DNA of 64,000 nt, from contig DATKZF010000003.1 in assembly GCA_035528115.1 (NCBI GenBank), positions 292,651-356,650 of the forward strand. Direction: 5' to 3'. Source of the stretch: Candidatus Bipolaricaulota bacterium (GTDB taxonomy: Bacteria; Patescibacteriota; Patescibacteriia; UBA11705; DATKZF01). Below are positions 15,834 to 32,231 of the stretch, one piece after another (position 1 is the stretch's first letter; each line of letters starts with the position of its first letter). Under the pieces are notes generated by a model, which was not told the origin of the DNA, made no database searches, and saw nothing but the letters and a program-made list of their open reading frames with translations. Made by a program: the position numbers and the translations under genes.

Positions 15834-15858
15834 AGAGAGCCAATGTGATGGCTCTCTA
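15834..15858. terminator. Bidirectional hairpin between convergent genes
   Basis: agagagcca-atgtga-tggctctct, a 9-bp stem. Confidence 0.4.
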
Positions 15859-16185
15859 GTTGAACGCGACTTCGTGATACGGAGCAAAAGACTCCGCGTC
15901 AAAGATCGACGCGACCATGCGGCCGTTCAATTCCGGGTCCCAGGCCGGTTTGATCGAAATCAACACTTTTTTGCCGACCACTTCGCCGAAAAGACAGCCC
16001 GAAAACACCATGACTTGTTCCTTGCCGTCAATTTCAACAACAATGACCGCTCGGTGTCTGGCATGTCTGCCATATTTGTCGGCCGTTACTTTCAGCAACC
16101 GGAACCTTTTGAACACGCCAAGCACTTGAAGCATCGTCTTCCCTCCCGGTTTAGGTTCCCATTCGACATACATTATAATTATCAA
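15856..16185 (-). CDS. Hypothetical protein (~105 aa)
   Basis: About 50% GC. TTGACA-N15-TATAAT lies immediately before the internal Met MYVEW, so it is possibly leaderless. Confidence 0.4.
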   Translation of the reverse strand: MIIIMYVEWEPKPGGKTMLQVLGVFKRFRLLKVTADKYGRHARHRAVIVVEIDGKEQVMVFSGCLFGEVVGKKVLISIKPAWDPELNGRMVASIFDAESFAPYHEVAFN

Positions 16186-16227
16186 GCAATCCTGTCAATT
16201 GCGATTTTTGTCTTTGAGTGGTAAAAT

Positions 16228-16320
16228 TTGGGTACAAGATTACAGATAAACACACGAGATTATACAGATTGGAGTTATATCTCGTACAATCTGTACACTA
16301 ATCTGTAATCTCGTAACCTA
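16228..16320 (+). repeat. Palindrome-rich ~70-nt intergenic element (copy 1)
   Basis: cgagattatacagattgg...aatctgtaatctcgtaa. Near-identical copy at 57085..57152. Confidence 0.7.
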
Positions 16321-16325
16321 AAAAT

Positions 16326-17372
16326 ATGCAAACGATTTACATAATCACCACCGTAATTTTCGCGATTCTTTTCATCGCTGCGCTTTTTTATTTTTCAAAA
16401 AAACTAAGCGCGCTCAAGCCCGAAGAAAAAGACGACAAAAGCATGCAGCTTTTGCAAGAGCAATTGAAAGAAATCCGGCAGACCATGGATTACAAGCTGG
16501 GTGAATCTCAAAAACAAATTCAAACGCAATTCGGCCAGAGCGCCAAAATAATTCGGGACGTCACGGAAAAATTGACCAAACTCGACGACACCAATAAACA
16601 AGTGATGGGCTTTGCCGAGCAGCTGCAAAGTCTGGAAAATATTTTAAAAAACCCGAAGCAAAGAGGAATTTTGGGAGAATATTATTTGGAAACTCTTTTG
16701 AAAAACGTTTTCGCGCCCAATCAATATCAATTGCAATACAAATTCACTGACGGAGAAATAGTGGATGCCGTGATTTTCATCAAAGACTATATCATTCCCA
16801 TTGATTCGAAATTTTCACTCGAAAATTACAATAAAATCGTGGAGGAAAAAGATCCGACTCGGCACGAGCAGCTGGAAAAACTTTTCAAACAGGATTTAAA
16901 AAACCGAATCGATGAAACATCCAAATACATCAGGCCTCAAGAAACAACGACTGACTTCGCTTTCATGTTTATCCCGTCCGAAGGAATTTACTACGACCTT
17001 TTGGTCAACCAAGTCGGCGCGGTCAAAGTCAACACGCGCGATCTGATCGAATACGCGTTCAAGGAAAAACATGTGATCATTGTTTCGCCGACTTCATTTT
17101 ACGCGTATTTGCAAACAGTGATTCAGGGCTTGAAAAAAATGCAAATAGAGGAGCAGACCAAGGAAATAATCAAACGCGTGGAAGAACTCAACAAACATAT
17201 CGCGGCTTATGACATGCACATGAAAAAATTGGGCAATAACATCGGCACGACCGTGAACACTTACAATACCGCTTATAAAGAATTCAAAAAAATAGACAAA
17301 GACGTAGTGCGGATTACCGGCAGCGAGCCGGCGATTGATCCGATGGAGATTGATAGGCCGCAGGCAGACTAA
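16326..17372 (+). CDS. rmuC: DNA recombination protein RmuC
   Basis: N-terminal TM, long coiled coil, C-terminal RmuC-like domain. Confidence 0.7.
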   Translation: MQTIYIITTVIFAILFIAALFYFSKKLSALKPEEKDDKSMQLLQEQLKEIRQTMDYKLGESQKQIQTQFGQSAKIIRDVTEKLTKLDDTNKQVMGFAEQLQSLENILKNPKQRGILGEYYLETLLKNVFAPNQYQLQYKFTDGEIVDAVIFIKDYIIPIDSKFSLENYNKIVEEKDPTRHEQLEKLFKQDLKNRIDETSKYIRPQETTTDFAFMFIPSEGIYYDLLVNQVGAVKVNTRDLIEYAFKEKHVIIVSPTSFYAYLQTVIQGLKKMQIEEQTKEIIKRVEELNKHIAAYDMHMKKLGNNIGTTVNTYNTAYKEFKKIDKDVVRITGSEPAIDPMEIDRPQAD

Positions 17373-17590
17373 TAAATCCAGCGGCATCGGTATTGAGGCT
17401 TGAACATTGAAATTCGTTATATCGAAATTCGAAATTGGCTATGGAAATTCGAGGTTCGAGATTCGTTTTAACCGATTTCCGACGTTCTATTTTCTATTAC
17501 TCTTCAGCTTCGCTCAGGACGGACGATTTTTCCTTCTAATTTGTAACCATTTGTAATATTTGTATTGATTTGTAAATTTGTAACCCCAAC

Positions 17591-17619
17591 TTGACAAGGC
17601 CTCAATTCCCCGCTATTAT
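17591..17619 (+). promoter_or_regulatory. Sigma70 promoter TTGACA-17-TATTAT for rpsT
   Basis: Exact -35 hexamer and 17-bp spacer. Confidence 0.65.
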
Positions 17620-17666
17620 ATCAAAAGTCATTATCTTTAATATTCAACCTTAATCTTACAACTGAT

Positions 17667-17945
17667 ATGCCAAATACCAATCAAGGTAAAAAAGAACTGA
17701 GAAAAAGCATCAAGCGATCCAAATTAAATCGCGTCGCTGTGGCAAAAGTTAAAACTTTGAGAAAGAAAACTCTCAAATCAATCGAATCAAAATCGGCCGA
17801 TGCGGAAAAAATGATCAAAGAGACCATTAAAAATATAGACAAGCAAACTCAAAAAGGCAGAATCAAAAAAAACACCGGCTCGAGAATGAAATCAAGGTTG
17901 ATAAAAAACTATAACAAGACCAAAGCCGCGACAGATTCAAAATAA
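17667..17945 (+). CDS. rpsT: 30S ribosomal protein S20
   Basis: KKR...RNK...QKGRIKKNTGSRMKSRL pattern typical of S20. Confidence 0.8.
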   Translation: MPNTNQGKKELRKSIKRSKLNRVAVAKVKTLRKKTLKSIESKSADAEKMIKETIKNIDKQTQKGRIKKNTGSRMKSRLIKNYNKTKAATDSK

Positions 17946-17962
17946 ATTCAATCCAATATAAA

Positions 17963-17992
17963 AAGACCGGCATAAAAGCCGGTTTTTTGTTT
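17963..17992 (+). terminator. Intrinsic terminator of rpsT
   Basis: accggc-ataaaa-gccggt followed by TTTTTTG. Confidence 0.75.
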
Positions 17993-18000
17993 TGATCGCG

Positions 18001-18078
18001 CGGGATGGGCGCATGCCCATCGTAGAGACGCGCCATGGCGCGTCTCTACGCGGCGGCGACCCGCCGCCGACCCGCGCG
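18001..18078. repeat. GC-rich nested palindromic element (copy 1 of 3)
   Basis: gatgggcgcatgcccatc, gtagagacgcgccatggcgcgtctctac, gcggcggcgacccgccgccg. The same core GTAGAGACGCGCC..GGCGCGTCTCTAC occurs at 50172 and 53987. Confidence 0.8.
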
Positions 18079-18081
18079 GTT

Positions 18082-19053
18082 TTACAACCCCATCACAAAC
18101 AAATCCAACAAAAGTTGCGGCGACCAGGAAGTGGATTTGAATTTTTTTTCAATCGATAAAAGCCGGCTGTAAATTTTTTTCAATTCTTCAAAAGTGAATC
18201 TGTCCGCCTGCTGCCAAGTCTTTTTGGCCACGAACGGGTGCAGTTTCAATTCCCTGGCCGCGAATTCCGGCGAACTTGTTCGGCCGCTGTTTTTAACGTC
18301 TTTGATCATCAAAATATTTCTGAATTGCCTGACAATCATGGTCAACAAATAAAATTGATTGGCGCCGCTGCCAAGTTGATCGGCCAAGAGCTTGCCGCTT
18401 AAAGCTTTATTTTTTACTGAAAGCGCGTCCACGAAATCGAAAATATTGTCGTTGAATTTTCCCTTGACCAAATCCTCGACATCTTTGACTGAAATTTCCC
18501 GATTCCGGCAATAGCTCGCCAACTTCTGAATTTCAGCGTCCAGCTGCCACAAATCATTGCCGACCAAAATTGCCAGCCGCTCAGCCGCCGAATTGGCAAT
18601 GGTCCCGCCGACCGAAGCGACTTGTTTTTTTATCCAATCATTTAGCAAAAAACCTTTGGGGCTGGCAAACGATTTTACTTCCGCCAAAGGCGCCTTAGCG
18701 AGCGCTTTGTAAATCTTGCTTCTTTTATCGATTTCGCCTTTTTGGGAAAAAATCACGAAAAATTTTTCCGGCAATTTTTCAACGCTCCCCAAAATCAATT
18801 CTTCTATTTTTTTATCTTGTTTTTTCGCGAAAAAATTTTTCAAAATAATCAATTTATTTTGGCCGAAAAGCGAATCGACCTGCAAAGCGTTCTTTAATGT
18901 TTGTTCGACATTCCCCTTTTCTTCAAAATCTATTTTTAGAATATTAAAATATCCGTATTTGTCTTCAAACAAGGTTGTCCATTTTTGAATTTGTTTTGAA
19001 ATCGCCCAGCCGTTTTCGCCTGACCAGACGTAGATTTGTTTTTTATCAACCAT
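18082..19053 (-). CDS. holA: DNA polymerase III delta subunit
   Basis: HolA-like sequence. The true start is probably MVDKKQIYVW; the upstream extension MQQQEIPAFAGMT is a translated hairpin repeat. Confidence 0.7.
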   Translation of the reverse strand: MVDKKQIYVWSGENGWAISKQIQKWTTLFEDKYGYFNILKIDFEEKGNVEQTLKNALQVDSLFGQNKLIILKNFFAKKQDKKIEELILGSVEKLPEKFFVIFSQKGEIDKRSKIYKALAKAPLAEVKSFASPKGFLLNDWIKKQVASVGGTIANSAAERLAILVGNDLWQLDAEIQKLASYCRNREISVKDVEDLVKGKFNDNIFDFVDALSVKNKALSGKLLADQLGSGANQFYLLTMIVRQFRNILMIKDVKNSGRTSSPEFAARELKLHPFVAKKTWQQADRFTFEELKKIYSRLLSIEKKFKSTSWSPQLLLDLFVMGL

Positions 19054-19075
19054 AATTAGACAATAACCTTTTGTG

Positions 19076-19146
19076 GATTCCCGCTTTCGCGGGAATGACT
19101 GCCGGGAGCGGAACAATGCCCTTTTTGTCATTCCCGCGAAAGCGGG
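19076..19146. repeat. Inverted pair of hairpins attcccgctttcgcgggaat / attcccgcgaaagcgggaat
   Basis: Two perfect 20-nt hairpins in opposite orientation. They generate the FAGMT-type spurious N-terminus. Confidence 0.7.
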
Positions 19147-19173
19147 AATCTCTTGCTGTTGCATTGCTGCTCC

Positions 19174-21900
19174 CTAATACAACTTCTCCAAATCCCTCCA
19201 ATTATCCCCGTAATCGGTTTCGACCGTGATCGGCACGCAGGTTTTGTGGATCTTCTCCATTTTTTCATCGATTATTTTCGCCACTTTTTCCAATTCTTTT
19301 TCCGGCACTTCGAAAACAAGCTCATCGTGAACTTGAAGCAGCATTTTTGTCTCGGGACTGATTTTTTTCAATTCTTTATAAACTTCAATCATGGCGATCT
19401 TTATCAAGTCAGCGGCCGTGCCCTGAATGGGCGTATTGATCGCTTCGCGCTCAGCCGCGGCCTTGATTTGCTGCACGCCCGAATGAATATCCGGGAAATA
19501 TCTTTTTCTGCCGAACATGGTTTCCGTGTAGCCGTTTTCGCGGGCGAATTCTTTGATGCTTTCCATGTATTCTTGAACACGGCTAAATGACCGGTAATAT
19601 TTATCGATAAATTCTTTGGCTCTTTGAATGGAAATGCCGGTTCTGGCCGCCAAACCGTACGCGCCCATGCCGTATAAAATGCCGAAATTAATCATCTTGG
19701 CTTCGCGGCGCATATCTTTGGTGACGTCTTCGAGCTTGACGCCGTGAATTTTGGCCGCGGTTGCCGTATGAATATCATGTCCGGCTTTGAAAATTTCTAT
19801 CATGTTCTCGTCTTTGGCGAGACAAGCGACCACTCGAAGCTCTACCTGGGAATAGTCCGAAGAAACCAGTTTGCTTCCGGGCGCGGCAATAAAAGCTTTT
19901 CTGATTTTCATGCCGAGCGTCGTTCTTTTCGGAATATTTTGCAAATTCGGATCGGAAGAAGACAGCCGTCCCGTGGCCGTGATCGTTTGATTGAAGCTGG
20001 TGTGCACGCGACCGTCCGGCTTGACCAGTCGCGGCAAGGCGTCGATATAAGTGGATTTTAATTTCGTCAATTCGCGATATTCGACTATCAATTCAATGAT
20101 GGCATGCTTGCCCAAAAGTTTTTCCAGCTCCCCGGCTGCGGTCGAAATGCCGGTCTTGGTTTTTTTCAGTCCTTCGGTCGGCAATTTCAATTTTTCGAAA
20201 AAAATCACTTTCAATTGCAACGGCGAATTGATGTTGAATTTTTCACCGGCTTGCTTGTAAATTTTTTTCTCGAGCTCGCCCAGTTTTTCTTCGAATTCTT
20301 CAGACAATTTTTTCAAATATTTCAAATCGAGTAAGACGCCGTTTTTCTCCATTTCCGCCAAAACGTAAATCAAAGGCATTTCCATTTTTTCGAGCAAATC
20401 AAACAGTCCGTTTTCTTTTAATCTCTTCTCCAAAATTTTGTAAATTCGATAAGAAATATCCGCGTCTTCGCAAGAATATTCCGAGACTTTTTCTTTGGCC
20501 ACTTCAAATAAAGATTTTTGTTCTTTGCCTTTGCCGATCAGCTCTTCAATGGCAATCATTTGATGCCCCAGCTCGCGAAACGCCAAATCATTCAAATTGT
20601 GGCCGCGAGATCCGGGATTTAAAAGATACGACGCGATCATGGTGTCGAAATACAACCCTTTGACTTCAAGACCCGCCGCTTCAATCACTTCAAAATCGAA
20701 TTTCAGGTTATGGCCGACTTTTTTTATCTCCTGATTTTTGAAAATGGATTTTAATTTTTCAAACCGCTCTTTGTCGTAAATCACGTAATAAGCTTTGCCC
20801 TCATGCCAAGAAAAGCTGACTCCCAAAAGTTTATTAAAAAAGGGATCCAAGCCATCGGTTTCGGTGTCAAACGCGAAAATATTTTGTTTTTTCAGATCCG
20901 CTAAAAACGACTCGAACTTTTCAGCCGTATCCACCAATCGGTAATCGAGATTTTCTTTGGTTTTGGCAATGACCTTTTCTTCCGTTTGGCCGGCAATCTC
21001 TATTTTTTCCAAACGGTTCATCAATGTTTTAAATTGCAATTTTTGAAACAGTTTGCTCACTTTTTCCAAATCAAAAGGTTTGACCTTGGAATCGGACAAT
21101 TTGAATTTAATCGGCGTGTCTTTGACCAAGGTAACCAATCTTTTACTCTCGAACGCCGCCTTTTTATTTTCTTTCAATAAATTAATCACCCGCGGCTTCA
21201 AGTTTTTCGACTTGGCCGTGTCTTTTTCCAATTCATCATATAAATTTTCCAGAGTGTCGAATTTATTCAGTAAATCAATAGCCGTTTTCTCGCCGATGCC
21301 CGGCACGCCCGGAATATTGTCCGAGGGGTCGCCGCGCAAAGCTTTGTAATCGATCATCTGTTCCGGACCCAAGCCGTTAAATTTTTCCCTGACTTCTTTT
21401 TCATTGTAAGTGATTGTCTCTGAAATTCCCTTATGCAAAGCGTAAACTTTGGTGTTATGGTCAACCAATTGCAAAGCATCCATGTCGCCGGTGACGATTA
21501 TCGACTCGACATCCGGGTTGTCAATGATTTTTCTATTGACCAAAGTGGCGATGATGTCATCGGCTTCATAACCCTTGAGATCGTAATAAGGAATTTTAAA
21601 AACATCCAAAATGTTTTTTACATCATCCAGCTGAGCGTACAATTCATCGGGCTGTTTCACTCTCTGCGCTTTATATTCTTTATACTCAATTTTTCGAAAA
21701 GTCGGTTCGCGCCGGTCAAAGGCCACGGCCAAATAATCCGGTTTCAAATCCGGATAAAGTCTCAGCAAAATCGAAGTAAAGCCGTAAGCGGCATTGATCA
21801 ATTTACCGTCTTCGGTGGTGAGCGGCGGCAAGGCGTGCCAAGCTCGATGCAAGATGGCATTGCCGTCGATAATGACGAATTTTTTCTTTTTTAAAGCCAT
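19174..21900 (-). CDS. polA: DNA polymerase I
   Basis: 5'-3' exonuclease N-terminus and a polymerase domain with DYSQVELRV...HD motifs. Confidence 0.92.
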   Translation of the reverse strand: MALKKKKFVIIDGNAILHRAWHALPPLTTEDGKLINAAYGFTSILLRLYPDLKPDYLAVAFDRREPTFRKIEYKEYKAQRVKQPDELYAQLDDVKNILDVFKIPYYDLKGYEADDIIATLVNRKIIDNPDVESIIVTGDMDALQLVDHNTKVYALHKGISETITYNEKEVREKFNGLGPEQMIDYKALRGDPSDNIPGVPGIGEKTAIDLLNKFDTLENLYDELEKDTAKSKNLKPRVINLLKENKKAAFESKRLVTLVKDTPIKFKLSDSKVKPFDLEKVSKLFQKLQFKTLMNRLEKIEIAGQTEEKVIAKTKENLDYRLVDTAEKFESFLADLKKQNIFAFDTETDGLDPFFNKLLGVSFSWHEGKAYYVIYDKERFEKLKSIFKNQEIKKVGHNLKFDFEVIEAAGLEVKGLYFDTMIASYLLNPGSRGHNLNDLAFRELGHQMIAIEELIGKGKEQKSLFEVAKEKVSEYSCEDADISYRIYKILEKRLKENGLFDLLEKMEMPLIYVLAEMEKNGVLLDLKYLKKLSEEFEEKLGELEKKIYKQAGEKFNINSPLQLKVIFFEKLKLPTEGLKKTKTGISTAAGELEKLLGKHAIIELIVEYRELTKLKSTYIDALPRLVKPDGRVHTSFNQTITATGRLSSSDPNLQNIPKRTTLGMKIRKAFIAAPGSKLVSSDYSQVELRVVACLAKDENMIEIFKAGHDIHTATAAKIHGVKLEDVTKDMRREAKMINFGILYGMGAYGLAARTGISIQRAKEFIDKYYRSFSRVQEYMESIKEFARENGYTETMFGRKRYFPDIHSGVQQIKAAAEREAINTPIQGTAADLIKIAMIEVYKELKKISPETKMLLQVHDELVFEVPEKELEKVAKIIDEKMEKIHKTCVPITVETDYGDNWRDLEKLY

Positions 21901-21912
21901 ATGGTCATTTGA

Positions 21913-21941
21913 ATTATAGCGTTTTATGATGAAATTTTCAA
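21913..21941 (-). promoter_or_regulatory. Sigma70 promoter TTGAAA-17-TATAAT for polA, near-leaderless
   Basis: -10 ends about 12 nt before the ATG; no RBS. Confidence 0.5.
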
Positions 21942-22010
21942 TGTTAGAGGGCTAATGTTAGGAATTACATCCACCTTTGGCCTTATGCTTGAGAAGATTG
22001 TATTTCGTAA

Positions 22011-22052
22011 CACTGTATTGAAAAAGCCCAATGGTCATGACCAAAGGGCTTT
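22011..22052 (-). terminator. Intrinsic terminator of the island-3 gene
   Basis: aaagccc...gggcttt hairpin followed by a T-run on the minus strand. Confidence 0.65.
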
Positions 22053-22067
22053 CGGGGGCGGGCCAAC

Positions 22068-23735
22068 CTAGTAGTTGCAGAAGTACCCGCCGTCGACCGT
22101 GTCAAACACCGCGTTGATGTTGGGGTACGTGGGCAAAACACACATGACTGCGTGTTCCCCTGGCGAAACGCAAGTCATGAATGGGGTCATCCCGGAAACC
22201 TCGTCCGGAGTGCCCGGATCGATGTACGCCGTAGGCGGGGGAGCCGACGTATTGCTGGTGATGCTCACCCATACCTTACCGGTCAGCGTCTCGCTGATCG
22301 GATCGCTTGACTGGACGTCGAACAACAGCGCTTTGTAATCCACGCAACTCGAATAAAACTCAAACACGTGGATTCCTGGACCAATCGCGATCTGGCAGTT
22401 GCCCGGCAATGTGGAGTTGCAGACCACGGTTCCGTCCAACCGCAGGGTAGACGACGGCTGGGAGGTGATCGGTACGGTCAGGTCTTCTGTGGCCGCGGCG
22501 AACGTCACGTCGAACGTGTTGTTCGTCGCATCGATGAACTCATCGAGAACGACCGGGACGAATCCCCAACTGTTCACGATGACCTCATGCTGTCCTTCCG
22601 GCACCTCCATGGAACATGGCGTGCGGCAGACAGCCGGCTCGTTGTCGATTGACACGACCGCGTCCGTGGGGGTGCTCGTCACCGTCAGGAGAACGGGCAG
22701 CATGGCCTCGAGCATGGCGTCCACGACGTAGTCGTTGTCCAAAAATGACTCAACCGTCTCGTCGTAGTACCCGTCGAGATTGAACACGTACGTATGAGCG
22801 CACGCGGTCTGCTCAACGGCCAGGCATGGAGTCGCTTCGCAAACAACTTCGCCGCCTTCAGTGACGGTCGCGCCGATCGGCTCGGACGTGAAATCGCCAA
22901 CCACGGTCAGCGGCACGAGTGTCACGTTGAACGCGAAGCTCGTTTCCGAGACCATGATCAAGATATCCTCCGAGACGAAGCACCCGGTCAAGTCAATGAT
23001 GTGCACGGTGTGCTGCCCCTCGGTCAGAGAGATCTCTGCCGGCGTATAGTTCGTGACCGTGTCATCATCTACTCGGAAATAGACTCCGATCGGCTCGGAC
23101 GTGATAGTCACGACCACCACGATCGGCGCAATGTCCGGCTGAACATCGACAGGAACCACGTCCACGGCCATGTCAACCGGCACATCCGGCTGCACGTCAG
23201 CCGGCACGTCCTCGGCCACGTCGATTAGCACGTCCGGCTGCACGTCGACCGGCGCGTCCTCGATCACGTCGGGCGTCACCTCCGGCTGAACTTCGGCCAA
23301 CGCGTCCTCGATCAGATCGACCGGAACGTCCGGCTGAACATCGACCGGAACATCTTCCACCAACTCCGGCGGAACGTCCGGCTGAACTTCGACCGGAATG
23401 TCCTCGACCACCTCGAGCGGCACATCCTCCGCCACTTCTACCGGAATGTCCTCGACCAGCTCGGCCGGCACATCCCGCGCGACGTCGAGCGGATGGAGAT
23501 CTCGCATGGGCCTGCTGTCAGCCTCTGCGTCTTCTTCCATGTCCGGAACGGTGGCGTCCTCCTTGATGTCCGGCAAGCGCGGGATGTCGGTGATGACCTC
23601 GAGGAAGTCCCCTCCGAAATCATGAGCCATTGCATCTTCCGTTTCGACCAGGCTCGGGCCGACCGTGGCCTCACTACCGCAAGCGGCGAAGAAAAGGCCG
23701 ACAAAAACAAAAAGAACAAATTGTCTCGGACTCAT
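22068..23735 (-). CDS. Secreted acidic-repeat lipoprotein with about five PEGA-like domains, GC-rich island 3
   Basis: RBS AGGAGGA-7-ATG; signal peptide plus lipobox-like FAACGS; about 120 aa of (E/D)DVPV(D/E)VQPDVP tandem repeats; repeated ITSEP..G..V..DG...G.TP..EGQH blocks. About 62% GC. Confidence 0.7.
   Translation of the reverse strand: MSPRQFVLFVFVGLFFAACGSEATVGPSLVETEDAMAHDFGGDFLEVITDIPRLPDIKEDATVPDMEEDAEADSRPMRDLHPLDVARDVPAELVEDIPVEVAEDVPLEVVEDIPVEVQPDVPPELVEDVPVDVQPDVPVDLIEDALAEVQPEVTPDVIEDAPVDVQPDVLIDVAEDVPADVQPDVPVDMAVDVVPVDVQPDIAPIVVVVTITSEPIGVYFRVDDDTVTNYTPAEISLTEGQHTVHIIDLTGCFVSEDILIMVSETSFAFNVTLVPLTVVGDFTSEPIGATVTEGGEVVCEATPCLAVEQTACAHTYVFNLDGYYDETVESFLDNDYVVDAMLEAMLPVLLTVTSTPTDAVVSIDNEPAVCRTPCSMEVPEGQHEVIVNSWGFVPVVLDEFIDATNNTFDVTFAAATEDLTVPITSQPSSTLRLDGTVVCNSTLPGNCQIAIGPGIHVFEFYSSCVDYKALLFDVQSSDPISETLTGKVWVSITSNTSAPPPTAYIDPGTPDEVSGMTPFMTCVSPGEHAVMCVLPTYPNINAVFDTVDGGYFCNY
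23093..23480. repeat. Tandem ~24-bp coding repeats (acidic DVPVDVQP array)
   Basis: cgtccggctgaacttcgaccggaa-like units iterated about 15 times. Confidence 0.75.
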
Positions 23736-24053
23736 GCTGTCATCCTCCTGTTGTTGCGCATGATTGATATATCGATATGTCAAACTGCTGACTTATTATA
23801 CTAGAACAAAATCGTATTCTTGTCAATTCCCCAAATTATTTCAAAAGCTCTGCCATTTTACAATATGTATGACTGATTGGAAAGTAAAAGTATTACAAAA
23901 AAATGTCCCGATCAAGGACACTTTTTCTACCGATTCATGCCATTCTTCGCTTCGCGAAGAATGGGGGCACGGACCCACCTTCGTCAAGACTACGGCAAGC
24001 AGGCGGGATTTGCACCCATGCATAGCGGTTTTGTCCCGATAAATAAATAAATT

Positions 24054-24128
24054 TGGAGGCACGGATGGGAATTGCACCCATGCGTTGCGGTTTTGCAGAC
24101 CGCTGCCTTACTGCTTGGCTACCGTGCC
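24054..24128 (-). tRNA. tRNA-Cys (GCA)
   Basis: Anticodon loop ctgcaaa, discriminator U, CCA encoded. Flanked by a 17-bp inverted repeat gataaataaataaattt, with partial self-duplicates at 24005..24037 and 24193..24232. Confidence 0.85.
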
Positions 24129-24300
24129 AACAAATTTATTTATTTATCGAGGATCCTCGAAAATTATAAAAATAAAGGATTTTTAATTTTCGGGACAGAC
24201 CGCTGCCTTACTAATTGGCTACCGTGCCTTAAAAAGATTAAAAATAAAAAAATATTGAATATCTATTTAATCTTATCATGCAAAAAGCAGGCTGTAAACA

Positions 24301-24326
24301 TAAAAGAAAAGCCCGCGGAAGCGGGC
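24301..24326 (-). terminator. Intrinsic terminator
   Basis: gcccgc-ggaa-gcgggc followed by a T-run on the minus strand. Confidence 0.65.
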
Positions 24327-24354
24327 ATTTTCTTCATATCGCGTTATATTATAA

Positions 24355-24912
24355 TTACTCAACAACCACTATTTTTACATTTTGCTTACCGAATTGAATG
24401 GCATCGCTTCTGTCTTTCATCCAGATATCGACACGGTTGGAATATCGTCTGTTCATACGATCATGAACAACGAATTCTTTATCACCGTATAATTCAGGAA
24501 TCTTAACCTTGGTGCCAAACGGCAAAAAGTTCGTGGCAATGACGTTTTCCTCGCCCGCGGCGCAAACGTTATAACCGTCGGCCGTAATACAAGGAGAAGC
24601 ATCGCACTGGTCAACCGTACTGGTATAAGCGGTAGCGGTCGTCCATAATTCGCCCTGCTTGGATTTCGGGTAAATAACCCTCTGTCTGACCAAGGCTTGA
24701 GTCTTAATCTTATCCTGTTTTTCCTTATAAGCGATTATATTCTCGGAAATAATATCTTTCTTATTGGCCGAAATCACGGAATTGATATTCCCTGAATTAT
24801 CGGTTTCTTTAGCCCAACTCGGCAAAGCGATATTGGTCAAAATCAACAAAACCATAACAAATAAGGAGATTTTGCTGATTTTGCGTAATTTTACGCTATT
24901 AAATATATTCAT
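24355..24912 (-). CDS. Secreted 3D-domain (MltA-like) cell-wall protein
   Basis: Signal/TM N-terminus; C-terminal TATAYTS...CDASPC...GT.V...DRMNRR...IW 3D-domain pattern. Confidence 0.55.
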   Translation of the reverse strand: MNIFNSVKLRKISKISLFVMVLLILTNIALPSWAKETDNSGNINSVISANKKDIISENIIAYKEKQDKIKTQALVRQRVIYPKSKQGELWTTATAYTSTVDQCDASPCITADGYNVCAAGEENVIATNFLPFGTKVKIPELYGDKEFVVHDRMNRRYSNRVDIWMKDRSDAIQFGKQNVKIVVVE

Positions 24913-25069
24913 ATATTATATGTTACTTAAGATTAAATTATAGCACAAATCGTTAAAAATGTCAATACCCCCAAACATACATCCACATACTATCATTTTC
25001 GCTTGACAATAGGCAATATTATAAGCTATTATTATTACTACGTTATTCGTAAAACATCTATATAACATT

Positions 25070-25480
25070 ATGTTAAAAATTATCTTGTCGAGAATAGGAA
25101 AAAAACATCAACCCTTTTATCGCATAACGGTTCTTGAAAAGAGCAAAGATCCGTGGGGAAATTATCTGGAAAAATTGGGTCATTACAACCCGAGAACAAA
25201 AGAAATAAAGTTGAATGCGGAGAGAATCAAGCACTGGATCGCGAACGGAGCCCAACCTTCTGCCACGGTTCACAATTTGCTGGTGAAGAACGAAATCATT
25301 TCCGGAAAAAAGGTTTCCGTAACGACAATCAGCAAAAAGCGACAAGCAAAGATGGCCGCAAAAAAAGCTGAAAGCGCGGCCAAAGAAGAAGCTGCCAAAC
25401 CGGCCGCGGAAATAAAAGAAGAAGCTCCGGCCGTTGAAGATACTCCCAAGGCGGAACAGACTGAAACTGAAAAAAAATAA
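25070..25480 (+). CDS. rpsP: 30S ribosomal protein S16 with a K/A/E-rich tail
   Basis: MLKIILSRIGKKHQPFYRI S16 signature. Confidence 0.85.
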   Translation: MLKIILSRIGKKHQPFYRITVLEKSKDPWGNYLEKLGHYNPRTKEIKLNAERIKHWIANGAQPSATVHNLLVKNEIISGKKVSVTTISKKRQAKMAAKKAESAAKEEAAKPAAEIKEEAPAVEDTPKAEQTETEKK

Positions 25481-25493
25481 ATTTATCACAAAA

Positions 25494-25528
25494 AAATCGC
25501 CCCTCGACCTAAATCGGGGCGTTTTTTA
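25494..25528 (+). terminator. Intrinsic terminator after rpsP
   Basis: cgcccc...ggggcg followed by TTTTTT. Confidence 0.7.
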
Positions 25529-25530
25529 TC

Positions 25531-25559
25531 TTGACAGAAAACCTGTATTTTGCTATAAT
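25531..25559 (+). promoter_or_regulatory. Consensus sigma70 promoter TTGACA-17-TATAAT
   Basis: Perfect hexamers and spacer; about 100-nt structured leader before the KH gene. Confidence 0.65.
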
Positions 25560-25660
25560 GGTTATAGATCCTTAAAAAGGGATTCTTCAGTAAATACCGC
25601 TGGTCTGGTCACCAGTAGATATTTCTGACTGAATTAAGAATTAAGCGCGAAAAGAATTTT

Positions 25661-25990
25661 ATGGCAGAAAAATTTGCTGACCAAGAGTTTGTTGAGTACC
25701 TTGTAAAGACGATCGTTTCTCATCCCGAAGATGTGCAAGTTGAACGAAAAGTTGATGAAATGGGAGTATTGCTTTCATTGACCATCAACGCGGAAGACAT
25801 GGGTTACGTCATCGGCAAACAAGGCAAAACAGCGAAGGCCATTAGAACTTTGCTGAAAATCGTCGGAGCGAAAAACAACGCTCGAGTCAACTTAAAAATC
25901 ATTGAACCGGAAGGCTCGACTCACGTTCGAAGACCGGAACCGGAAAGAGAAGAAGTTGACACCGACGTTGTTGATGATCTCAAGATCTAA
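25661..25990 (+). CDS. KH-domain RNA-binding protein (YlqC/UPF0109-like)
   Basis: GYVIGKQGKTAKAIRTL KH motif; conserved position after rpsP. Confidence 0.75.
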   Translation: MAEKFADQEFVEYLVKTIVSHPEDVQVERKVDEMGVLLSLTINAEDMGYVIGKQGKTAKAIRTLLKIVGAKNNARVNLKIIEPEGSTHVRRPEPEREEVDTDVVDDLKI

Positions 25991-26076
25991 ACAAATTTGT
26001 ATACTGCGAAAGCCACGGTAAAACGTGGCTTTTGTAATTTAAAAGGGCTACTGCTGTAAGTAGCCCGCGAGTAAGT

Positions 26077-26451
26077 TTACTCATTCAAAAAATCGTAAAA
26101 GAGCGAAGACGCATGGGAAATCAACCGCAGAATCTCCGTGAAATGCTTGCGCCTGAGTCTGGCGGACGCGCCCGCCACCATGCAATTTCTCCTCTTTAGA
26201 GCGGCCAGATCCGCCAAGGCGGCTCTCAAGGGCTCATTCTGCCTAATAATTTCTTTTATCAACATGTACACGGCGTCCGCGCCCGGGTAACGACGCAGGA
26301 AATTCTTCTTTCTTGTTCTGCGCGCCAGCTCGAGCGTTGCGCACAACTCAAAGACGCGATGCGCATCGCACATGCCACGGTTGTACAGCTGAAGGACGAA
26401 CAACTTCACCATCACCCTATTGAAAGTATCCAGCGTCGGTCGTCTGGTCAT
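26077..26451 (-). CDS. Hypothetical cytoplasmic protein (125 aa), GC-rich island 4
   Basis: Very strong RBS AGGAGGAGGAG immediately before ATG MTRRP; upstream promoter TTGACA-17-TATTTT. Confidence 0.5.
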   Translation of the reverse strand: MTRRPTLDTFNRVMVKLFVLQLYNRGMCDAHRVFELCATLELARRTRKKNFLRRYPGADAVYMLIKEIIRQNEPLRAALADLAALKRRNCMVAGASARLRRKHFTEILRLISHASSLFYDFLNE

Positions 26452-26579
26452 CTCCTCCTCCTTTAATAAATAAAAAATATCAATTCCGCGCCGCGCTGTC
26501 AAACGCGGCTTATTGGCTGATTGACAAAAAAGCGATTTTATGAGACGGTATACCAGGCCAAGCAACAAGGAGGATCGCC

Positions 26580-27353
26580 ATGAAACGGTCAATTTGTCTG
26601 GCTCTGTGTCTGTCTCTGTCGGTTTTGGCAAGCTGCGGAGCCAATGCTCCAAACACTTGCCCTGATCAAATCGTCTGGAACGTGCCGTATTCCTTGTGCG
26701 GCCAAAGCTGCGCCAAGTCCGAGACTGCGTGGGCAGGCGTCAACAAGAACATCTGCACAATGATGGAGGCAAGGATCTCACATGCCCCTGTCGTGAGCGG
26801 GCCATACCTGTTTCAGCTTTCGATGTCTTCGGCCTACGGAGCTTTGAGTCTTACTACCGCGCAAGAAGTCAGCGACTTGTTCCACATCTTCTACCCGCTG
26901 ACACAGCCGACGCACCAGCCGGGCGAGGTCGCGGGAGACTTGGTGTCAAACGAACAGCCATACCTCGTTCTGATTAACGGCGGCAACGTCAAAGAAATCA
27001 TTCAGTTGCGTGCGCTCGACGTTCCTTGGATGAACAAAGGCCGGGACTTTATTCCCACGGACAGGGACGCACTGCTTCTGGAAATCATGTCCAAAATGCA
27101 CGTCAACAATGACGGCGCATACACGTTGATACCTGTCAACATCAATTGTCCAATCTCGGAGTGCTATACCATCGATCTTGCTCCGGAGACCGTTGAAGGG
27201 TTTTTCCACATGGGTAAGACTCCTCGCAGAATATGGACTGTACAATATCAACAAAAGGAATTGACCGGCATCATCGAGATGGTCTTCCTCGATAACAACA
27301 GTTGCCGCAAACCTGAGACACCCGAGCCATTAGCCCCTGTCTTCGACCTCTGA
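26580..27353 (+). CDS. Lipoprotein (257 aa), GC-rich island 4
   Basis: RBS AAGGAGGA; signal peptide with lipobox LASCG; about 55% GC. Confidence 0.6.
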   Translation: MKRSICLALCLSLSVLASCGANAPNTCPDQIVWNVPYSLCGQSCAKSETAWAGVNKNICTMMEARISHAPVVSGPYLFQLSMSSAYGALSLTTAQEVSDLFHIFYPLTQPTHQPGEVAGDLVSNEQPYLVLINGGNVKEIIQLRALDVPWMNKGRDFIPTDRDALLLEIMSKMHVNNDGAYTLIPVNINCPISECYTIDLAPETVEGFFHMGKTPRRIWTVQYQQKELTGIIEMVFLDNNSCRKPETPEPLAPVFDL

Positions 27354-27418
27354 ACCTAGTCGCCATAGCCTCTAGGTTTTTTCAATTCATAATCCAGATG
27401 ATATAATGATTTCATAAT

Positions 27419-28090
27419 ATGAAATACGACATTTTAACTCTTTTCCCAGAAATCTTCGACTCTTATCTAAATGAGAGTATTTTGGGACGCGCTCAAAAAA
27501 ACAAGAAAATTCAAATCAAAATCCATGACATTAGAAAAAACGCGATTGATAAACACAACACCGCCGATGACAAGCCGTATGGCGGCGGACCGGGCATGGT
27601 CATGATGATCGAGCCGATTTACAAAACCTTAAAAAAAATCAGACGCAAAAAAAACTCCAAGGTTATCTTATTGTCCGCTCGCGGCAAAACATGGACTCAG
27701 CAAAGAGCGCAAAAATACAAAAAATTGGATCAGCTGATTTTAATCTGCGGACATTATGAAGGCGTGGACGAAAGAATCAAAAATTTCATTGATGAGGAAA
27801 TTTCCATCGGCGATTATGTTTTGACCGGGGGCGAGCTGGGCGCCATGGTTTTAGTTGATTCCATCTCAAGATTGATTCCCGGAGTACTGGGCAAAAAGGA
27901 ATCCTTGAAAGAAGAATCTCATTCCCAAAAAGGTTATTTGGAATATCCTCAATATACTCGGCCCGAAATATTTAAAGCTGGTGGCAAAAAATACGCGGTG
28001 CCGGAAATCTTACTCTCGGGCCACCATTTGAAAATAAACGAGTGGCGACAACGCCAATCAAAAAAGTTTGATTTTTTTAACAAGGTCTGA
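27419..28090 (+). CDS. trmD: tRNA (guanine37-N1)-methyltransferase
   Basis: PYGGGPGMVM and GDYVLTGGE SPOUT motifs. Confidence 0.9.
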   Translation: MKYDILTLFPEIFDSYLNESILGRAQKNKKIQIKIHDIRKNAIDKHNTADDKPYGGGPGMVMMIEPIYKTLKKIRRKKNSKVILLSARGKTWTQQRAQKYKKLDQLILICGHYEGVDERIKNFIDEEISIGDYVLTGGELGAMVLVDSISRLIPGVLGKKESLKEESHSQKGYLEYPQYTRPEIFKAGGKKYAVPEILLSGHHLKINEWRQRQSKKFDFFNKV

Positions 28091-28136
28091 TAAAATAAAA
28101 AAATAAACTCGCTATTCGCGAGTAAGGGAGCAACCA

Positions 28137-28331
28137 ATGAACGGGGAACGCAAAATTCTGATTCCACAAATCAGGGATTTCGAGAAGTTGAAGGTGAACG
28201 CGCCTTCTCAAGGAATCCAAGCTCTCTGCAACTTGCCCTGCCACCAGGTCTGCCGCGCCTGCAGCTGCAAGGCCCCTCAGGACAAACCAACAACACCCCA
28301 AAACGAATACAGGTTCAACTTCGGGGCGTAA
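28137..28331 (+). CDS. Cys-rich small ORF (64 aa), candidate RiPP precursor
   Basis: RBS AAGGGAG; CNLPCHQVCRACSCK cluster; convergent with the rSAM/peptidase genes. Confidence 0.3.
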   Translation: MNGERKILIPQIRDFEKLKVNAPSQGIQALCNLPCHQVCRACSCKAPQDKPTTPQNEYRFNFGA

Positions 28332-28361
28332 CAACGCATCCCGAGAAAGCGTCTCTCAAGT

Positions 28362-28391
28362 GAGAAGGAAAAACCCTTCTCATTTTAATTT
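28362..28391. terminator. Bidirectional intrinsic terminator
   Basis: gagaagg-aaaaa-ccttctc followed by ATTTTAATTT. Confidence 0.55.
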
Positions 28392-29063
28392 CAAAAATAA
28401 GTACTTTAATAATTTGTCAATATTAGCGTCTCGATAAAGCTCAATAGAATTTTTATAAATTTTTTCATGTTCCGGATAAGGCTTTTGCTTTCCGATGTTA
28501 AACTTTTCTTTGCATTTACTGGAATTCATTATATGTATATTTATAATCTCAGAAACCGCCCATAATATATTCTCGTTCTTCTTGCCAGTAAACGCTGGGA
28601 ACCTTGCAAAAACATAATCATAAAAAATAAAATGAAGCATTTCATGAATAATTGTTTCAATTATACCGACCCTTTTATAATATGCCTGAAATATCTTATT
28701 CTTTATATCCCGTGGATTGCAATTCCAGATAGATAAATAGCACTTGTATACCCCCTTTGGGAAGGGGTGGCAATTAAAATACTCTTCGGCGAAACAAAAA
28801 AATTCATCACTTTTTCTATCCCACGCCTTCTCAGATGCAACTTTCGCTTTCAATATATCTTTTAAATGCGTTTTATAATATGAGGCCGTGTATGACTTTA
28901 GTACACATGGACTTATTCTTCCTTTCTTTTTCAATTCAGGATGCGAATTCAAAATACCTTTTTCAAAAAAAGAAAAACCTCCAAATTTAATTTTTCTAAA
29001 TTGGCAAGCTATTTTATAATCCAACTTTTCATCTAGACGAAACAGTAATTTAGGATGGTTCAT
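28380..29063 (-). CDS. HExxH-motif protein (putative metallopeptidase)
   Basis: IIHEMLHFIF motif. Confidence 0.5.
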   Translation of the reverse strand: MNHPKLLFRLDEKLDYKIACQFRKIKFGGFSFFEKGILNSHPELKKKGRISPCVLKSYTASYYKTHLKDILKAKVASEKAWDRKSDEFFCFAEEYFNCHPFPKGVYKCYLSIWNCNPRDIKNKIFQAYYKRVGIIETIIHEMLHFIFYDYVFARFPAFTGKKNENILWAVSEIINIHIMNSSKCKEKFNIGKQKPYPEHEKIYKNSIELYRDANIDKLLKYLFLKLK

Positions 29064-29106
29064 AAAAAAATGGCAAACTTCAATGTAAGTTTACCATCTC
29101 GAAACA

Positions 29107-30495: not shown

Positions 30496-30615
30496 TTCCG
30501 TCTCCTTTCGTTGTTTAGGCTTTGCCACTCGCATTTTAGAATATTATTTGAAAATATTCAAAAATCCCGTAAAAACTACCCACAATTAATCCACCTTTTG
30601 GAACCAAAAAAAGAT

Positions 30616-30744: not shown

Positions 30745-32231
<1,487 letters not shown>

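Follow-up and report, generated by a model that had tools for sequence, protein, structure and literature searches.

Fragments beside a tRNA-Cys gene that resemble recombination scars are shown here to be the two halves of an older tRNA-Cys gene, which has been split within its anticodon by an insert that carries a complete tRNA-Cys gene. The insert, 162 bp in length (positions 24034-24195), lies between anticodon nucleotides 34 and 35 of the resident gene; positions are those of the 64-kb stretch of Patescibacteria DNA that was analyzed as a whole (termed here the window). The sequence-only reading that preceded this analysis had interpreted the fragments as footprints of repeated integration and excision at the tRNA gene. 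They do derive from tRNA-Cys and do record an insertion, but repeated integration and excision does not fit the single 34|35 junction, the lack of a common core, of a target duplication and of a nearby integrase, or the inheritance of the arrangement.

The explanation that best accounts for the locus as a whole, and that is considered likely, has several parts that are held jointly: a nested insertion, an outer gene copy that is now a pseudogene, a cassette with a replacement tRNA that was copied in during repair, and a neighboring gene for a PEGA lipoprotein that has a separate history. An essential RNA gene is known to survive invasion when the invader is a self-splicing intron or is an integrase-dependent element that restores the gene's 3' end. 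If the nest comes from a dedicated mechanism, it would represent a third route to survival, in which the invader brings a whole new copy of the gene, and it could account for the abundance of partial tRNA copies beside tRNA genes in these reduced genomes, besides offering a testable role for the widespread but uncharacterized GIY-YIG proteins of the UPF0213 type. Because tRNA finders report only the inner copy, such nests go unnoticed, and their fragments are easily misread as prophage attachment sites; a full-text literature search turned up no paper describing either nested tRNA genes or GIY-YIG/tRNA cassettes for these bacteria.

A tRNA-Cys gene within a tRNA-Cys gene

All of the tRNA parts described here lie on the minus strand. 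The inner tRNA-Cys(GCA) gene (24054-24128), which ARAGORN reports as intact and which has U73 and an encoded CCA, matches the Rfam tRNA model (RF00005) at 62.8 bits (threshold 29) and is taken to be the working gene. The 5' half of the outer gene (24196-24228) comprises tRNA positions 1-34, its last base, G34, being the first base of the anticodon; it is identical to the inner gene at 31 of 33 nucleotides, and a second match with at most 3 mismatches arose in none of 100 shuffles. Positions 35-64, that is, the remainder of the anticodon loop, the 3' strand of the anticodon stem, the variable loop and the T arm, occupy 24004-24033 and match the inner gene at 26 of 29 nucleotides over 24005-24033. 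The duplicates recognized in the sequence-only reading at 24193-24232 and 24005-24037 are thus real, albeit with narrower limits (24196-24228 and 24005-24033), and both align significantly to tRNA-Cys, with within-window BLAST E-values of 3.5e-9 (5' half) and 2e-4 (3' part). A third piece, absent from that reading, is the 3' acceptor strand TCCGTGCCCCCA (23962-23973), with discriminator C73 and a CCA. Between it and the preceding piece is a 30-nt GC-rich hairpin, CCTGCTTGCCGTAGTCTTGACGAAGGTGGG (23974-24003, minus strand), which is located in the 3' strand of the outer T stem. The older gene therefore survives as two halves (24196-24228 and 23962-24033), the second of which has been split again by this hairpin.

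When mapped onto the intact gene, the outer 5' half and 3' part abut exactly at 24095/24096, which corresponds to anticodon 34|35. Joining the outer halves restores GGTCTGCAAAACC with zero extra bases, i.e., without a target duplication, and from the three pieces joined in silico ARAGORN calls a tRNA-Cys(GCA). The junctions of the insert (GGTCTG|TCCCGA on the left and TCGGGA|CAAAACC on the right) have no common core. Structure prediction folds the whole nest as a cloverleaf within a cloverleaf, with a predicted energy of -106.4 kcal/mol (z -6.5).

Within the insert, the inner tRNA is flanked by an inverted repeat, the left arm of which (24131-24149) is on the 5' leader side and the right arm of which (24037-24055), including C75 and A76, is on the 3' trailer side. 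This repeat had been described as a perfect one of 17 bp; it is real and is perfect over 19 bp, forming a leader/trailer stem that reaches 22 bp with one bulge and extending to 28 nt at 93% through the acceptor stem; two matches occurred in 0 of 100 shuffles. Among the 179 tRNAs examined, flanking repeats of at least 13 bp are confined to the four tRNA-Cys genes with older-copy remnants on each side. The arms were rejected as the ends of a terminal-inverted-repeat transposon or MITE, because the 19-bp repeat adjoins the tRNA, lies on the left 46 nt inside the end of the insert, and is accompanied by no target duplication. Two further TCCCGA...TCGGGA hairpins (at 12251 and 13476) were considered as copies of a mobile hairpin and were dismissed, as both are inside the 23S rRNA gene.

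Two single-copy spacers, both on the minus strand, complete the insert. The left spacer (24129-24195, 67 nt), which starts TCCCGA, contains an AT-rich hairpin, a TATAAT box, the palindrome TCGAGGATCCTCGA and the left repeat arm; the right spacer (24034-24053, 20 nt), AATTTATTTATTTATCGGGA, is complementary to the tRNA-proximal part of the left spacer.

Outside of the older gene, a trailer hairpin, CCATTCTTCGCGAAGCGAAGAATGG (23940-23964, minus strand), pairs with the outer CCA and is the original trailer of the resident tRNA-Cys gene; beyond it is a terminator-like hairpin, TGTCCCGATCAAGGACA, with a T run and with A and T runs on either side (23897-23925). Upstream of the outer 5' half, a consensus scan found a promoter-like TTTACA-17-TAAGAT with a TG (24270-24298, minus strand), which is probably the original tRNA-Cys promoter; a TTTACA...TGTTAAAAT motif upstream of the tRNA-Cys unit is also present in lineages L002, L166, L167 and L168. 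Transcription would start at this old promoter and read across the entire nest as far as the old terminator; cutting of the long leader/trailer stem (by an enzyme of the RNase III type), together with RNase P, would then free the inner tRNA, and the outer halves would be by-products of processing.

Inheritance of the nest and decay of the outer copy

The same nest is present in two other Patescibacteria species, L002 (whose PolA is 84% identical) and L168/L169. The inner tRNA-Cys is identical at 74 of 75 nucleotides in L002; the outer 5' half recurs in L002 and also in L168, where it has two extra hairpin inserts; and an insert homologous to the 30-nt T-stem hairpin is at the same place in L002, L167 and L168. 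Lineage L167 has the tRNA, the right spacer and the outer 3' half only, the 5' half being gone. Lineage L166 has a single, uninterrupted tRNA-Cys followed by the trailer CCATCCTTCGCGAGAGCGAAGGATG, which is homologous to the trailer after the window's outer 3' end, and is evidently the empty site of the nest. Occupied and empty sites can be compared in two cases, always between different species: the nests of the window, L002 and L168 against L166, and those of L027 and L069 against L077, whose single tRNA-Cys and terminator align with the outer 3' half and terminator of L027. By these comparisons, the nest is inherited and is common to at least three species. The cassette region of L069 is 77% identical to that of L027, which is similar to the identity of their genes; the nests are old and vertically inherited, and no recent mobility is seen. 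A metagenome scan for closer relatives or further copies found nothing above 48% for the neighboring protein, and viral contigs scanned with the tRNA 5' half and with the spacer/stem gave no match. As a separate observation, an element of about 400 nt upstream of tRNA-Cys in L166, L168 and L170 has only a sub-threshold hammerhead match and has no counterpart in the window.

The left spacer is 88% identical in L002 and 93% identical in L168, and the right spacer is 100% identical in L167, 95% in L002 and 90% in L168, that is, 88-100% for these single-copy sequences versus 49% at polA four-fold sites. Moreover, the inverted repeat keeps 19/19 pairing in the window, L002 and L168 despite a compensating change (A-to-T and T-to-A) in its arms. 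Because the spacers are far better conserved than polA four-fold sites, they must have some function; a plain pseudogene does not predict such conservation of the spacers and outer halves. Together, the strongly conserved spacers and leader/trailer stem suggest an element involved in tRNA processing or a promoter element; RNA processing in these bacteria is poorly known.

The outer copy itself combines decay with conservation. In the window it has two interruptions, of 162 nt at 34/35 and of 30 nt within the T stem, with no intron signature found, and its 3' end reads CCGTGCC-C-CCA, so that it has C73 where the inner copy has U73; discriminator U73 is an identity element for CysRS. The L002 outer copy has a mismatch in the anticodon stem, and that of L168 has two more hairpin inserts, a deletion in the T arm and a mutated acceptor. 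On this evidence the outer tRNA-Cys copy is a decaying pseudogene. Its halves are 83-88% identical between the window and L002, far above the 49% of polA four-fold sites, which might be due to gene conversion with the inner copy as donor.

That the outer halves are much better conserved than neutral sites, that most differences between species are in loops, that the nest is predicted to fold as a compact nested cloverleaf, and that group I introns are known at anticodon-loop position 35/36 of Patescibacteria tRNA genes (PMC13011429) would all accord with an outer tRNA-Cys that contains introns--that is, with removal of the 162-nt insert and of the 30-nt hairpin from the RNA, each transcript then yielding two tRNA-Cys molecules. 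This is the least probable of the readings considered. A permissive cmscan against Rfam (E up to 10) over 23700-24400 found no group I intron or other RNA family, only the inner tRNA, and a scan of the whole window added nothing there. The 5' exon ends with G34 and the insert ends with ...TCGGGA, whereas group I splicing needs a U before the 5' site and a G as the last intron nucleotide. Both junctions are opposite each other at the start of what is modeled as a continuous helix (GTCCCGA/TCGGGAC), rather than in a bulge-helix-bulge (BHB), the criterion for which is two 3-nt bulges separated by a 4-bp helix at the exon-intron junctions; and no splicing endonuclease or ligase was seen among the genes examined in the window. 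The lesions of the outer copy also tell against intron removal, namely C73 in the window where tRNA-Cys identity needs U73, the additional inserts, T-arm deletion and broken acceptor of L168, and the missing 5' half of L167.

The neighboring lipoprotein gene and the origin of the insert

The PEGA lipoprotein gene (22068-23735, minus strand) encodes 555 residues, which comprise a putative signal peptide with a lipobox, an acidic linker, roughly 14 D/E/P/V repeats of eight residues each and five PEGA domains. The sequence-only reading had placed it about 320 bp from tRNA-Cys(GCA), and the distance from the start of the ORF to the intact tRNA is indeed 318 bp. It had also recognized the acidic tandem repeats, which number about 14 rather than about 15, and roughly five PEGA-like domains. 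The protein matches Pfam PEGA (PF08308, E 1.4e-16, 60.6 bits versus a gathering threshold of 20.8), and a locally iterated profile finds five such domains (residues 205-277, 278-344, 347-415, 418-485 and 486-552). The acidic repeats are encoded by 24/48-bp tandem DNA repeats (23157-23487, minus strand; 6.9 copies of 48 bp, from Tandem Repeats Finder and a direct-repeat search), and the protein contains 103 Asp+Glu versus 11 Lys+Arg. Judged by eye only, its N-terminus, MSPRQFVLFVFVGLFFAAC, is consistent with a lipobox (MSPRQFVLFVFVGLFFAA-C19), the L002 homolog having VLAC at this point. The product is predicted to be a membrane-anchored, strongly acidic stalk with five PEGA beta-domains, and a putative promoter (TTGACA-17-TAGTAT, 23798-23826, minus strand) matches the consensus at 10 of 12 positions in a consensus scan. 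A Logan contig that matches at 100% identity over 11.6 kb has this protein in the same layout, and an identical protein occurs in ENA, NCBI and JGI contigs of 604-763 kb; no repeat-number variants of the array were seen among these contigs.

This gene is not linked to the tRNA fragments beside it. It was rejected as cargo of a foreign island because it lies outside both fragments, because at four-fold sites its GC content (0.76) is the same as in polA (0.74), and because it is syntenic in relatives, PEGA genes being present in one to three copies upstream of polA in all close relatives. Given this equality at four-fold sites, amino-acid composition explains its overall GC of 0.60. The protein has one detectable homolog outside its own cluster (30% identity), and the gene is a separate native resident that evolves fast, as the genes of surface proteins do. 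Its interest is ordinary: it would be one more fast-evolving surface protein of a likely episymbiont.

These observations bear also on the notion of att-type scars, according to which tyrosine-integrase elements repeatedly entered and left tRNA-Cys and possibly delivered the PEGA gene. The anticodon loop and the T loop are classical places for integrase crossovers within tRNA genes; likewise the displaced 3' half downstream of the restored tRNA in L167 is the classical attR picture, and many relatives have copies of the 3' end 60-120 nt downstream of an intact tRNA. It is nonetheless highly improbable that the fragments are att scars. A Pfam search of 15182-30777 found no integrase or recombinase gene, the genes there belonging to other families or to none, and a phage DNA similarity search gave no match. 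The meeting of the 5' and 3' halves at one base would need two elements ending at the same base plus two near-total deletions; the junctions have no common core, and the outer halves are complementary (that is, successive) parts rather than repeats; the perfect stem around the inner gene would be unexplained; and the PEGA gene, besides being external to both fragments, shows the codon usage of a native gene and keeps its synteny in relatives. A neighboring 3D-domain protein matches phage peptidase families and is unrelated to integration.

In distant lineages the gene-in-gene design recurs, built from sequences that are unrelated to those here; in some of them a small GIY-YIG gene directly adjoins the inner tRNA. 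In L028 the inner tRNA is on an unrelated 13-14-bp stem with distal pairing. The 34 same-strand partial tRNA copies that were counted follow one order throughout: 5' pieces precede the intact gene and 3' pieces come after it, and the breaks fall in a D, anticodon or T loop. The window's tRNA cluster also contains a gene for a small GIY-YIG nuclease (33169-33417, plus strand; Pfam GIY-YIG, PF01541, E 8.2e-13), orthologs of which occupy this cluster in three further lineages. In L027, L069 (PF01541, E 1.2e-14) and L155, paralogs directly adjoin nested tRNA genes, and in L012 and L045 they adjoin tRNAs that have partial copies upstream. Five of ten small GIY-YIG ORFs end -17 to +7 nt from the 5' end of a same-strand tRNA, and there is a degenerate sixth in L123. 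A nuclease gene in or abutting the insert is thus present in the L027, L069 and L155 nests, degenerate in L123 and absent in the window, where the 162-bp insert has no ORF and where no nuclease gene lies within 9 kb of it. The sequence CAAAACCATT at the start of the window's GIY-YIG ORF was considered as a tRNA-Cys remnant; it is not kept in the orthologs and is probably due to chance.

The origin favored here, with moderate confidence, is a DNA break in a hairpin loop of the tRNA gene followed by repair, during which a cassette with its own replacement tRNA would have been copied in. The window's insert would then be a derivative of the GIY-YIG-bearing cassette of distant relatives, minus the nuclease gene. 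Somewhat doubtful, and put forward as a tentative generalization, is the existence in Patescibacteria of a family of very small selfish cassettes that would break a tRNA gene in a single-stranded loop of its folded form (the D loop, anticodon 34/35 or the T loop), that would each provide a replacement for what they destroy (either a whole tRNA on a processing stem or a new 3' end), and that would be driven by UPF0213-type GIY-YIG nucleases in tRNA operons--in other words, homing without splicing. If this were true, these loci would be Russian-doll tRNA genes, with two layers in the window's tRNA-Cys and three in L002 and L069.

The window's GIY-YIG protein is a candidate trans-acting nuclease, and its link to the nest is circumstantial. 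It is a bare catalytic domain, the nearest solved relatives of which are UPF0213 proteins (E 1.1e-6; BH0048 and EF2693) and, weakly, Slx1; neither it nor the PEGA protein matches a phage protein family (PHROG), and its orthologs are stable and occupy one place in the tRNA operon. Because of these properties, it may be a housekeeping gene rather than a homing nuclease. Further arguments against a cassette origin are the lack of an ORF in the window's insert and of a nuclease gene within 9 kb, the age and vertical inheritance of the nests, and the fact that the inner tRNA shares its anticodon stem-loop with the supposed target and therefore should itself be cleavable.

An alternative that involves no mobile element is a local error of replication or repair: stalling and template switching at a hairpin-forming tRNA would have duplicated the gene in place, fold-back synthesis would have generated the stems and GC hairpins, and vertical inheritance would have followed. 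The location of the break points of all partial copies in hairpin loops, the palindromic arms around the inner tRNA, the hairpin inserts in L012, L027 and L123 that copy or complement the adjacent stem strand, the lack of an ORF in the window's insert, and the old, vertically inherited look of the nests are all in its favor. It is judged unlikely, inasmuch as very distant lineages came to have this architecture as well, it does not account for the coupling to GIY-YIG genes (5 of 10), and simple self-primed extension is at odds with the internal loops (2x2 in the window, 4x4 in L028) between the acceptor stem and the repeat. Simple tandem duplication was rejected, because the spacers do not match the outer flanks: by eye and by repeat search they are not the copies of those flanks that such a duplication would give.

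Comparison with known systems

The PEGA lipoprotein resembles PEGA-domain surface proteins (PF08308) in its five PEGA beta-domains and in its putative N-terminal signal with a lipobox, and differs from them in its long acidic D/E/P/V repeat stalk.

Group I introns have been described at 35/36 in the anticodon loop of Patescibacteria tRNA genes (PMC13011429). They share with the nest the phylum, the loop and a neighboring position, and in both cases the interrupted copy is missed by standard tRNA finders; however, the insert here has no ribozyme signature and holds a tRNA gene, and the degenerate outer copy indicates replacement rather than splicing. The split, permuted and multi-intron tRNAs of Archaea (Nanoarchaeum, Caldivirga, Thermoproteales) are similar in that halves are parted at or next to the anticodon, in that complementary sequences adjoin the halves and in that further inserts occur at non-canonical positions; in contrast, the host here is a bacterium, there is no bulge-helix-bulge, and decaying halves flank a complete second copy.

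Phage T4 SegB, a free-standing GIY-YIG homing endonuclease whose gene lies in a tRNA gene cluster, reportedly cleaves within the region of the tRNA genes and promotes segmental amplification (PMC2330249, PMC13096335). As with SegB, small GIY-YIG genes are found here among tRNA genes, with partial or tandem duplications of tRNA segments alongside (L012, L045). Unlike SegB, the CPR proteins are predicted to be UPF0213-type catalytic domains of about 80 residues without a DNA-binding domain and match no phage family, their hosts are cellular genomes rather than phages, and the window's nest is without a nuclease ORF.

Mobile GC-rich palindromic mini-elements, as known from AT-rich genomes, include the GC clusters of yeast mitochondria, the double-hairpin elements of Allomyces and bacterial REP elements. 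Like these, the hairpins described here are short and GC-rich, are scattered over non-coding DNA that is AT-rich, and are inserted in RNA genes at places that are not essential; they differ in being specifically in the loops of disabled tRNA copies.

Finally, integrative elements that target tRNA genes (phages, ICEs and islands) share with the nest the tRNA target, a break in the anticodon loop (in relatives, the T loop), an insert that restores the function it destroyed, and a displaced partial copy that remains. Whereas such elements carry a replacement for the 3' part only, the insert here carries a whole tRNA within 162 bp and without an integrase; both of the old halves remain and meet at one nucleotide without a common core, and the inner gene is mounted on a perfect stem.

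Architecture of the tRNA-Cys locus

The only tRNA-Cys called at this locus by ARAGORN and Rfam is a tRNA-Cys(GCA) at 24054-24128 on the minus strand, which is bracketed by a perfect 19-bp inverted repeat. Partial copies of this gene, also on the minus strand, lie to either side: a 5' half at 24196-24228 (identical to the intact gene at 31/33 positions) and a 3' part at 24005-24033 (26/29); repeat comparison adds a third piece at 23962-23973, which consists of the 3' acceptor strand plus CCA and is separated from the 3' part by a GC-rich 30-nt hairpin. The two copied segments meet at 24095/24096 of the intact gene--that is, between G34 and C35, the first and second anticodon bases--and the three outer pieces, when joined in silico, are called by ARAGORN as a tRNA-Cys(GCA). 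The locus is therefore an older (outer) tRNA-Cys gene broken at 34/35 by 162 bp of inserted DNA (24034-24195), and this insert in turn carries a complete (inner) tRNA-Cys. At the junctions of this nest (left GGTCTG/TCCCGA..., right ...TCGGGA/CAAAACC) no bases are duplicated or lost. Within the insert, the right spacer (24034-24053, 20 nt) is complementary to the tRNA-proximal part of the left spacer (24129-24195, 67 nt), which sets the inner tRNA atop a stem about 22 bp long. The predicted fold of the whole nest places one cloverleaf within the anticodon loop of a second (-106.4 kcal/mol, z -6.5).

The repeats that the sequence-only reading reported at this tRNA are all real, and its proposal of an insertion at the tRNA gene stands, but not the kind of event it envisaged, namely repeated integration and excision: between 15182 and 30777 no recombinase gene is present, there is no shared core, the geometry is wrong for integrase scars, and the neighboring PEGA gene lies outside the fragments. 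Other familiar explanations also meet objections: for an intron-containing outer gene, no group I or BHB (bulge-helix-bulge) signature is present and the outer copies have degenerated; for a transposon with terminal inverted repeats, the repeat is internal and a target duplication is absent; and in a plain tandem duplication the spacers would be copies of the flanks, which they are not. Nor is the nested layout an assembly artefact, since it recurs across independent assemblies and other species share it. No description of such a tRNA-in-tRNA layout was found in the searchable literature.

History and conservation of the nest

Related Patescibacteria loci (designated here by L-numbers) exhibit the nest in various states. 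In L002 the nest, spacers and T-stem hairpin are as in the window, and a third, older 3' end fragment lies farther downstream (6497-6518; from the T loop to CCA, with two GC hairpins before it). L168 and L169 (two assemblies) share the nest, but with two extra GC hairpins in the outer 5' half, a partly deleted outer T arm and a mutated acceptor. L167 has the intact tRNA, an identical right spacer and the outer 3' half, but neither the outer 5' half nor the left spacer, and L166 has a single, uninterrupted tRNA-Cys. After this last gene comes CCATCCTTCGCGAGAGCGAAGGATG, the counterpart of the hairpin CCATTCTTCGCGAAGCGAAGAATGG found behind the outer 3' end in the window. Because the trailer of the L166 gene matches that of the window's outer copy, the outer copy is the original resident tRNA-Cys, and L166 represents the empty site. 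A like relation is seen in a distant second clade, where L077 has a single tRNA-Cys that, together with its terminator, aligns with the outer 3' half and terminator of L027. The outer copy itself is no longer a working gene: it has C73 in the window (tRNA-Cys requires U73), an anticodon-stem mismatch in L002 and gross damage in L168 and L167.

Two further features accompany these loci. In L002 and L168 the outer tRNA, too, has a perfect 19-bp inverted repeat (AAAACAATGAAAAAATTTG) on its two sides. L166 (~4690-5088), L168 (~2195-2600) and L170 (~2607-2903) share a conserved non-coding element, about 400 nt long and situated between the 3D-domain gene and tRNA-Cys, that has no counterpart in the window; it contains a hammerhead-like core (CUGACGAG...CGAAA), which scores only 20.6 bits, below threshold, against Hammerhead_3.

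Between the window and L002, four-fold degenerate sites of polA are just 49% identical and the flanks beyond the nest do not align, whereas identity is 99% for the inner tRNA, 95% for the right spacer (100% in L167), 88% for the left spacer (93% in L168) and 83-88% for the outer halves. All 19 bp of the stem remain paired in the window, L002 and L168 despite a paired change (AAATTTG/CAAATTT to AATTTTG/CAAAATT). Conservation of the outer halves can be explained by gene conversion from the inner copy. This explanation fails for the single-copy spacers, which, judging from their conservation, must presumably have some role; most obviously they would serve as a processing stem and, given a conserved TATAAT box, perhaps also as a promoter. 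These patterns argue that the nested layout is kept under selection.

Genomic setting and the adjacent PEGA gene

The window comes from a genome of the Patescibacteria (CPR), near Falkowbacteria; its closest PolA relatives are in Patescibacteria and Falkowbacteria metagenome-assembled genomes (MAGs), the nearest at 84% identity. An NCBI record with identical proteins is a MAG labelled 'Candidatus Bipolaricaulota'; every close relative found is from Patescibacteria or is Falkowbacteria-like, and the label is probably wrong. In minus-strand order, the 3D-domain protein gene (24355-24912) is followed by a terminator, a promoter-like site (24298-24270), the tRNA-Cys region, a second terminator, the PEGA gene (23735-22068) and polA (21900-19174). 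In this part of the phylum the synteny is conserved, with the 3D-domain gene on one side of tRNA-Cys and polA on the other.

The PEGA gene encodes a 555-aa protein, probably a lipoprotein. By inspection, its signal peptide has a lipobox (Cys19); an acidic linker comes next, then about 14 eight-residue D/E/P/V repeats, for which a 24/48-bp array at 23157-23487 codes, and finally five PEGA domains. Its sequence is identical across three sources, and a search of 5.8 billion proteins yielded one homolog outside its own cluster (30% identity), a member of a tandem trio of PEGA genes that a relative has upstream of polA. PEGA genes likewise occur upstream of polA in L002, L166 and L167, and the synonymous-site composition of the window's gene is native. 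A link between this gene and the tRNA fragments is rejected: the locus is a resident one, encodes a rapidly diversifying surface protein and is unrelated to them. Rapidly diversifying loci of this kind are typical of cell-surface or host-contact proteins.

Elsewhere in the window, the rRNA genes are unlinked: 5S and 23S lie on the minus strand (10985-14164), and 16S lies 16 kb away on the plus strand (30744-32229), followed by a tRNA cluster. A second GC-richer patch (26077-27353) contains a 257-aa ORF whose N-terminus (MKRSICLALCLSLSVLASCG) is lipoprotein-like and which matches no Pfam family; it is partly overlapped by a 191-aa ORF on the opposite strand. Coding repeats of 48 bp at 8031-8207 specify a Lys/Ala-rich peptide (KKAVKKAAPKRKKAVKK-like). 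A GC-rich palindrome (GCCGTAGAGACGCGCCGCGGCGCGTCTCTAC), which may be a REP-like element or a shared terminator, occurs three times (18013-18049, 50170-50206 and 53977-54013), and a perfect microsatellite of about 14 copies of the 7-bp unit TTTCATG (62404-62500) stops a few bases short of tRNA-Ser(CGA) at 62507.

Partial tRNA copies and GIY-YIG nucleases

Of the 179 tRNAs at the examined loci, only four, all tRNA-Cys genes with older-copy remnants on both sides, have an inverted repeat of at least 13 bp flanking them: those of the window, L002 and L168 (19 bp each) and that of the distant L028 (14 bp, of unrelated sequence, with additional pairing at the distal ends of its spacers). More generally, these genomes commonly have partial copies beside intact tRNAs (Cys, Ile, Phe, Leu, Ser, Ala, Val, Asp, Glu, Gly and, in L175, Pro). 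The 34 same-strand copies counted consist of 5' pieces upstream and 3' pieces downstream of the intact tRNA, with break points in the D, anticodon or T loops; in these same loops old copies frequently carry short GC-rich hairpins.

Related structures follow several tRNAs in the window. The 3' end and terminator of tRNA-Gly(TCC) are duplicated 130 nt downstream (33624-33673 and 33754-33803, 82% identical) with GC-rich filler between, a pattern of a new end in front of an old end that recurs at many relatives' tRNAs. GC-rich structured trailers directly follow several tRNAs (32542-32570, 32709-32737 and 33103-33150), their stems taking in the encoded CCA (e.g., CCAGCC...GGCTGG), and an 88-nt version occurs twice, once after tRNA-Leu and once after tRNA-Phe (14615-14702 and 32844-32931). 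The 30-nt hairpin of the outer tRNA-Cys resembles the first kind of trailer, on the opposite strand.

Template switching at hairpins, which would require no mobile element, is a serious, if rather unlikely, alternative account of the nest's origin. For insertion into an older tRNA gene, a lead is offered by small GIY-YIG nuclease genes. In the tRNA-Cys loci L027, L069 and L155, the intact tRNA is immediately preceded by a GIY-YIG ORF of about 80 aa, with older-copy pieces beside the unit; in L027 and L069 this ORF separates the outer 5' half from the inner tRNA. L123 contains a degenerate form of this unit, likewise with older tRNA pieces beside it. L012 (Phe; ~460-1100, minus strand) and L045 (Val; ~16990-17419) harbor tandem units of a partial 5' tRNA copy, a GIY-YIG ORF and an intact tRNA, the partial copies having GC hairpins in the D loop and in or beside the anticodon loop. 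One L045 hairpin, TCCCGAGGACTCGGGA, has ends identical to those of the window insert (TCCCGA...TCGGGA). Five of ten intact GIY-YIG ORFs end -17 to +7 nt from a tRNA 5' end. The window's own UPF0213-type gene (33169-33417, plus strand) lies within a cluster, between tRNA-Val, -Ile, -Phe and -Pro and tRNA-Gly(TCC), and three other Patescibacteria lineages (L171, L173 and L175) have orthologs at 67-80% identity in the same position. The link to the nests is circumstantial, because these proteins are bare UPF0213-type catalytic domains, match no phage family and look like stable residents. They are weakly similar to the structure-specific nuclease Slx1, and a nuclease of that type, if it opened hairpin loops in folded tRNA genes, would be consistent with break points that lie in loops.
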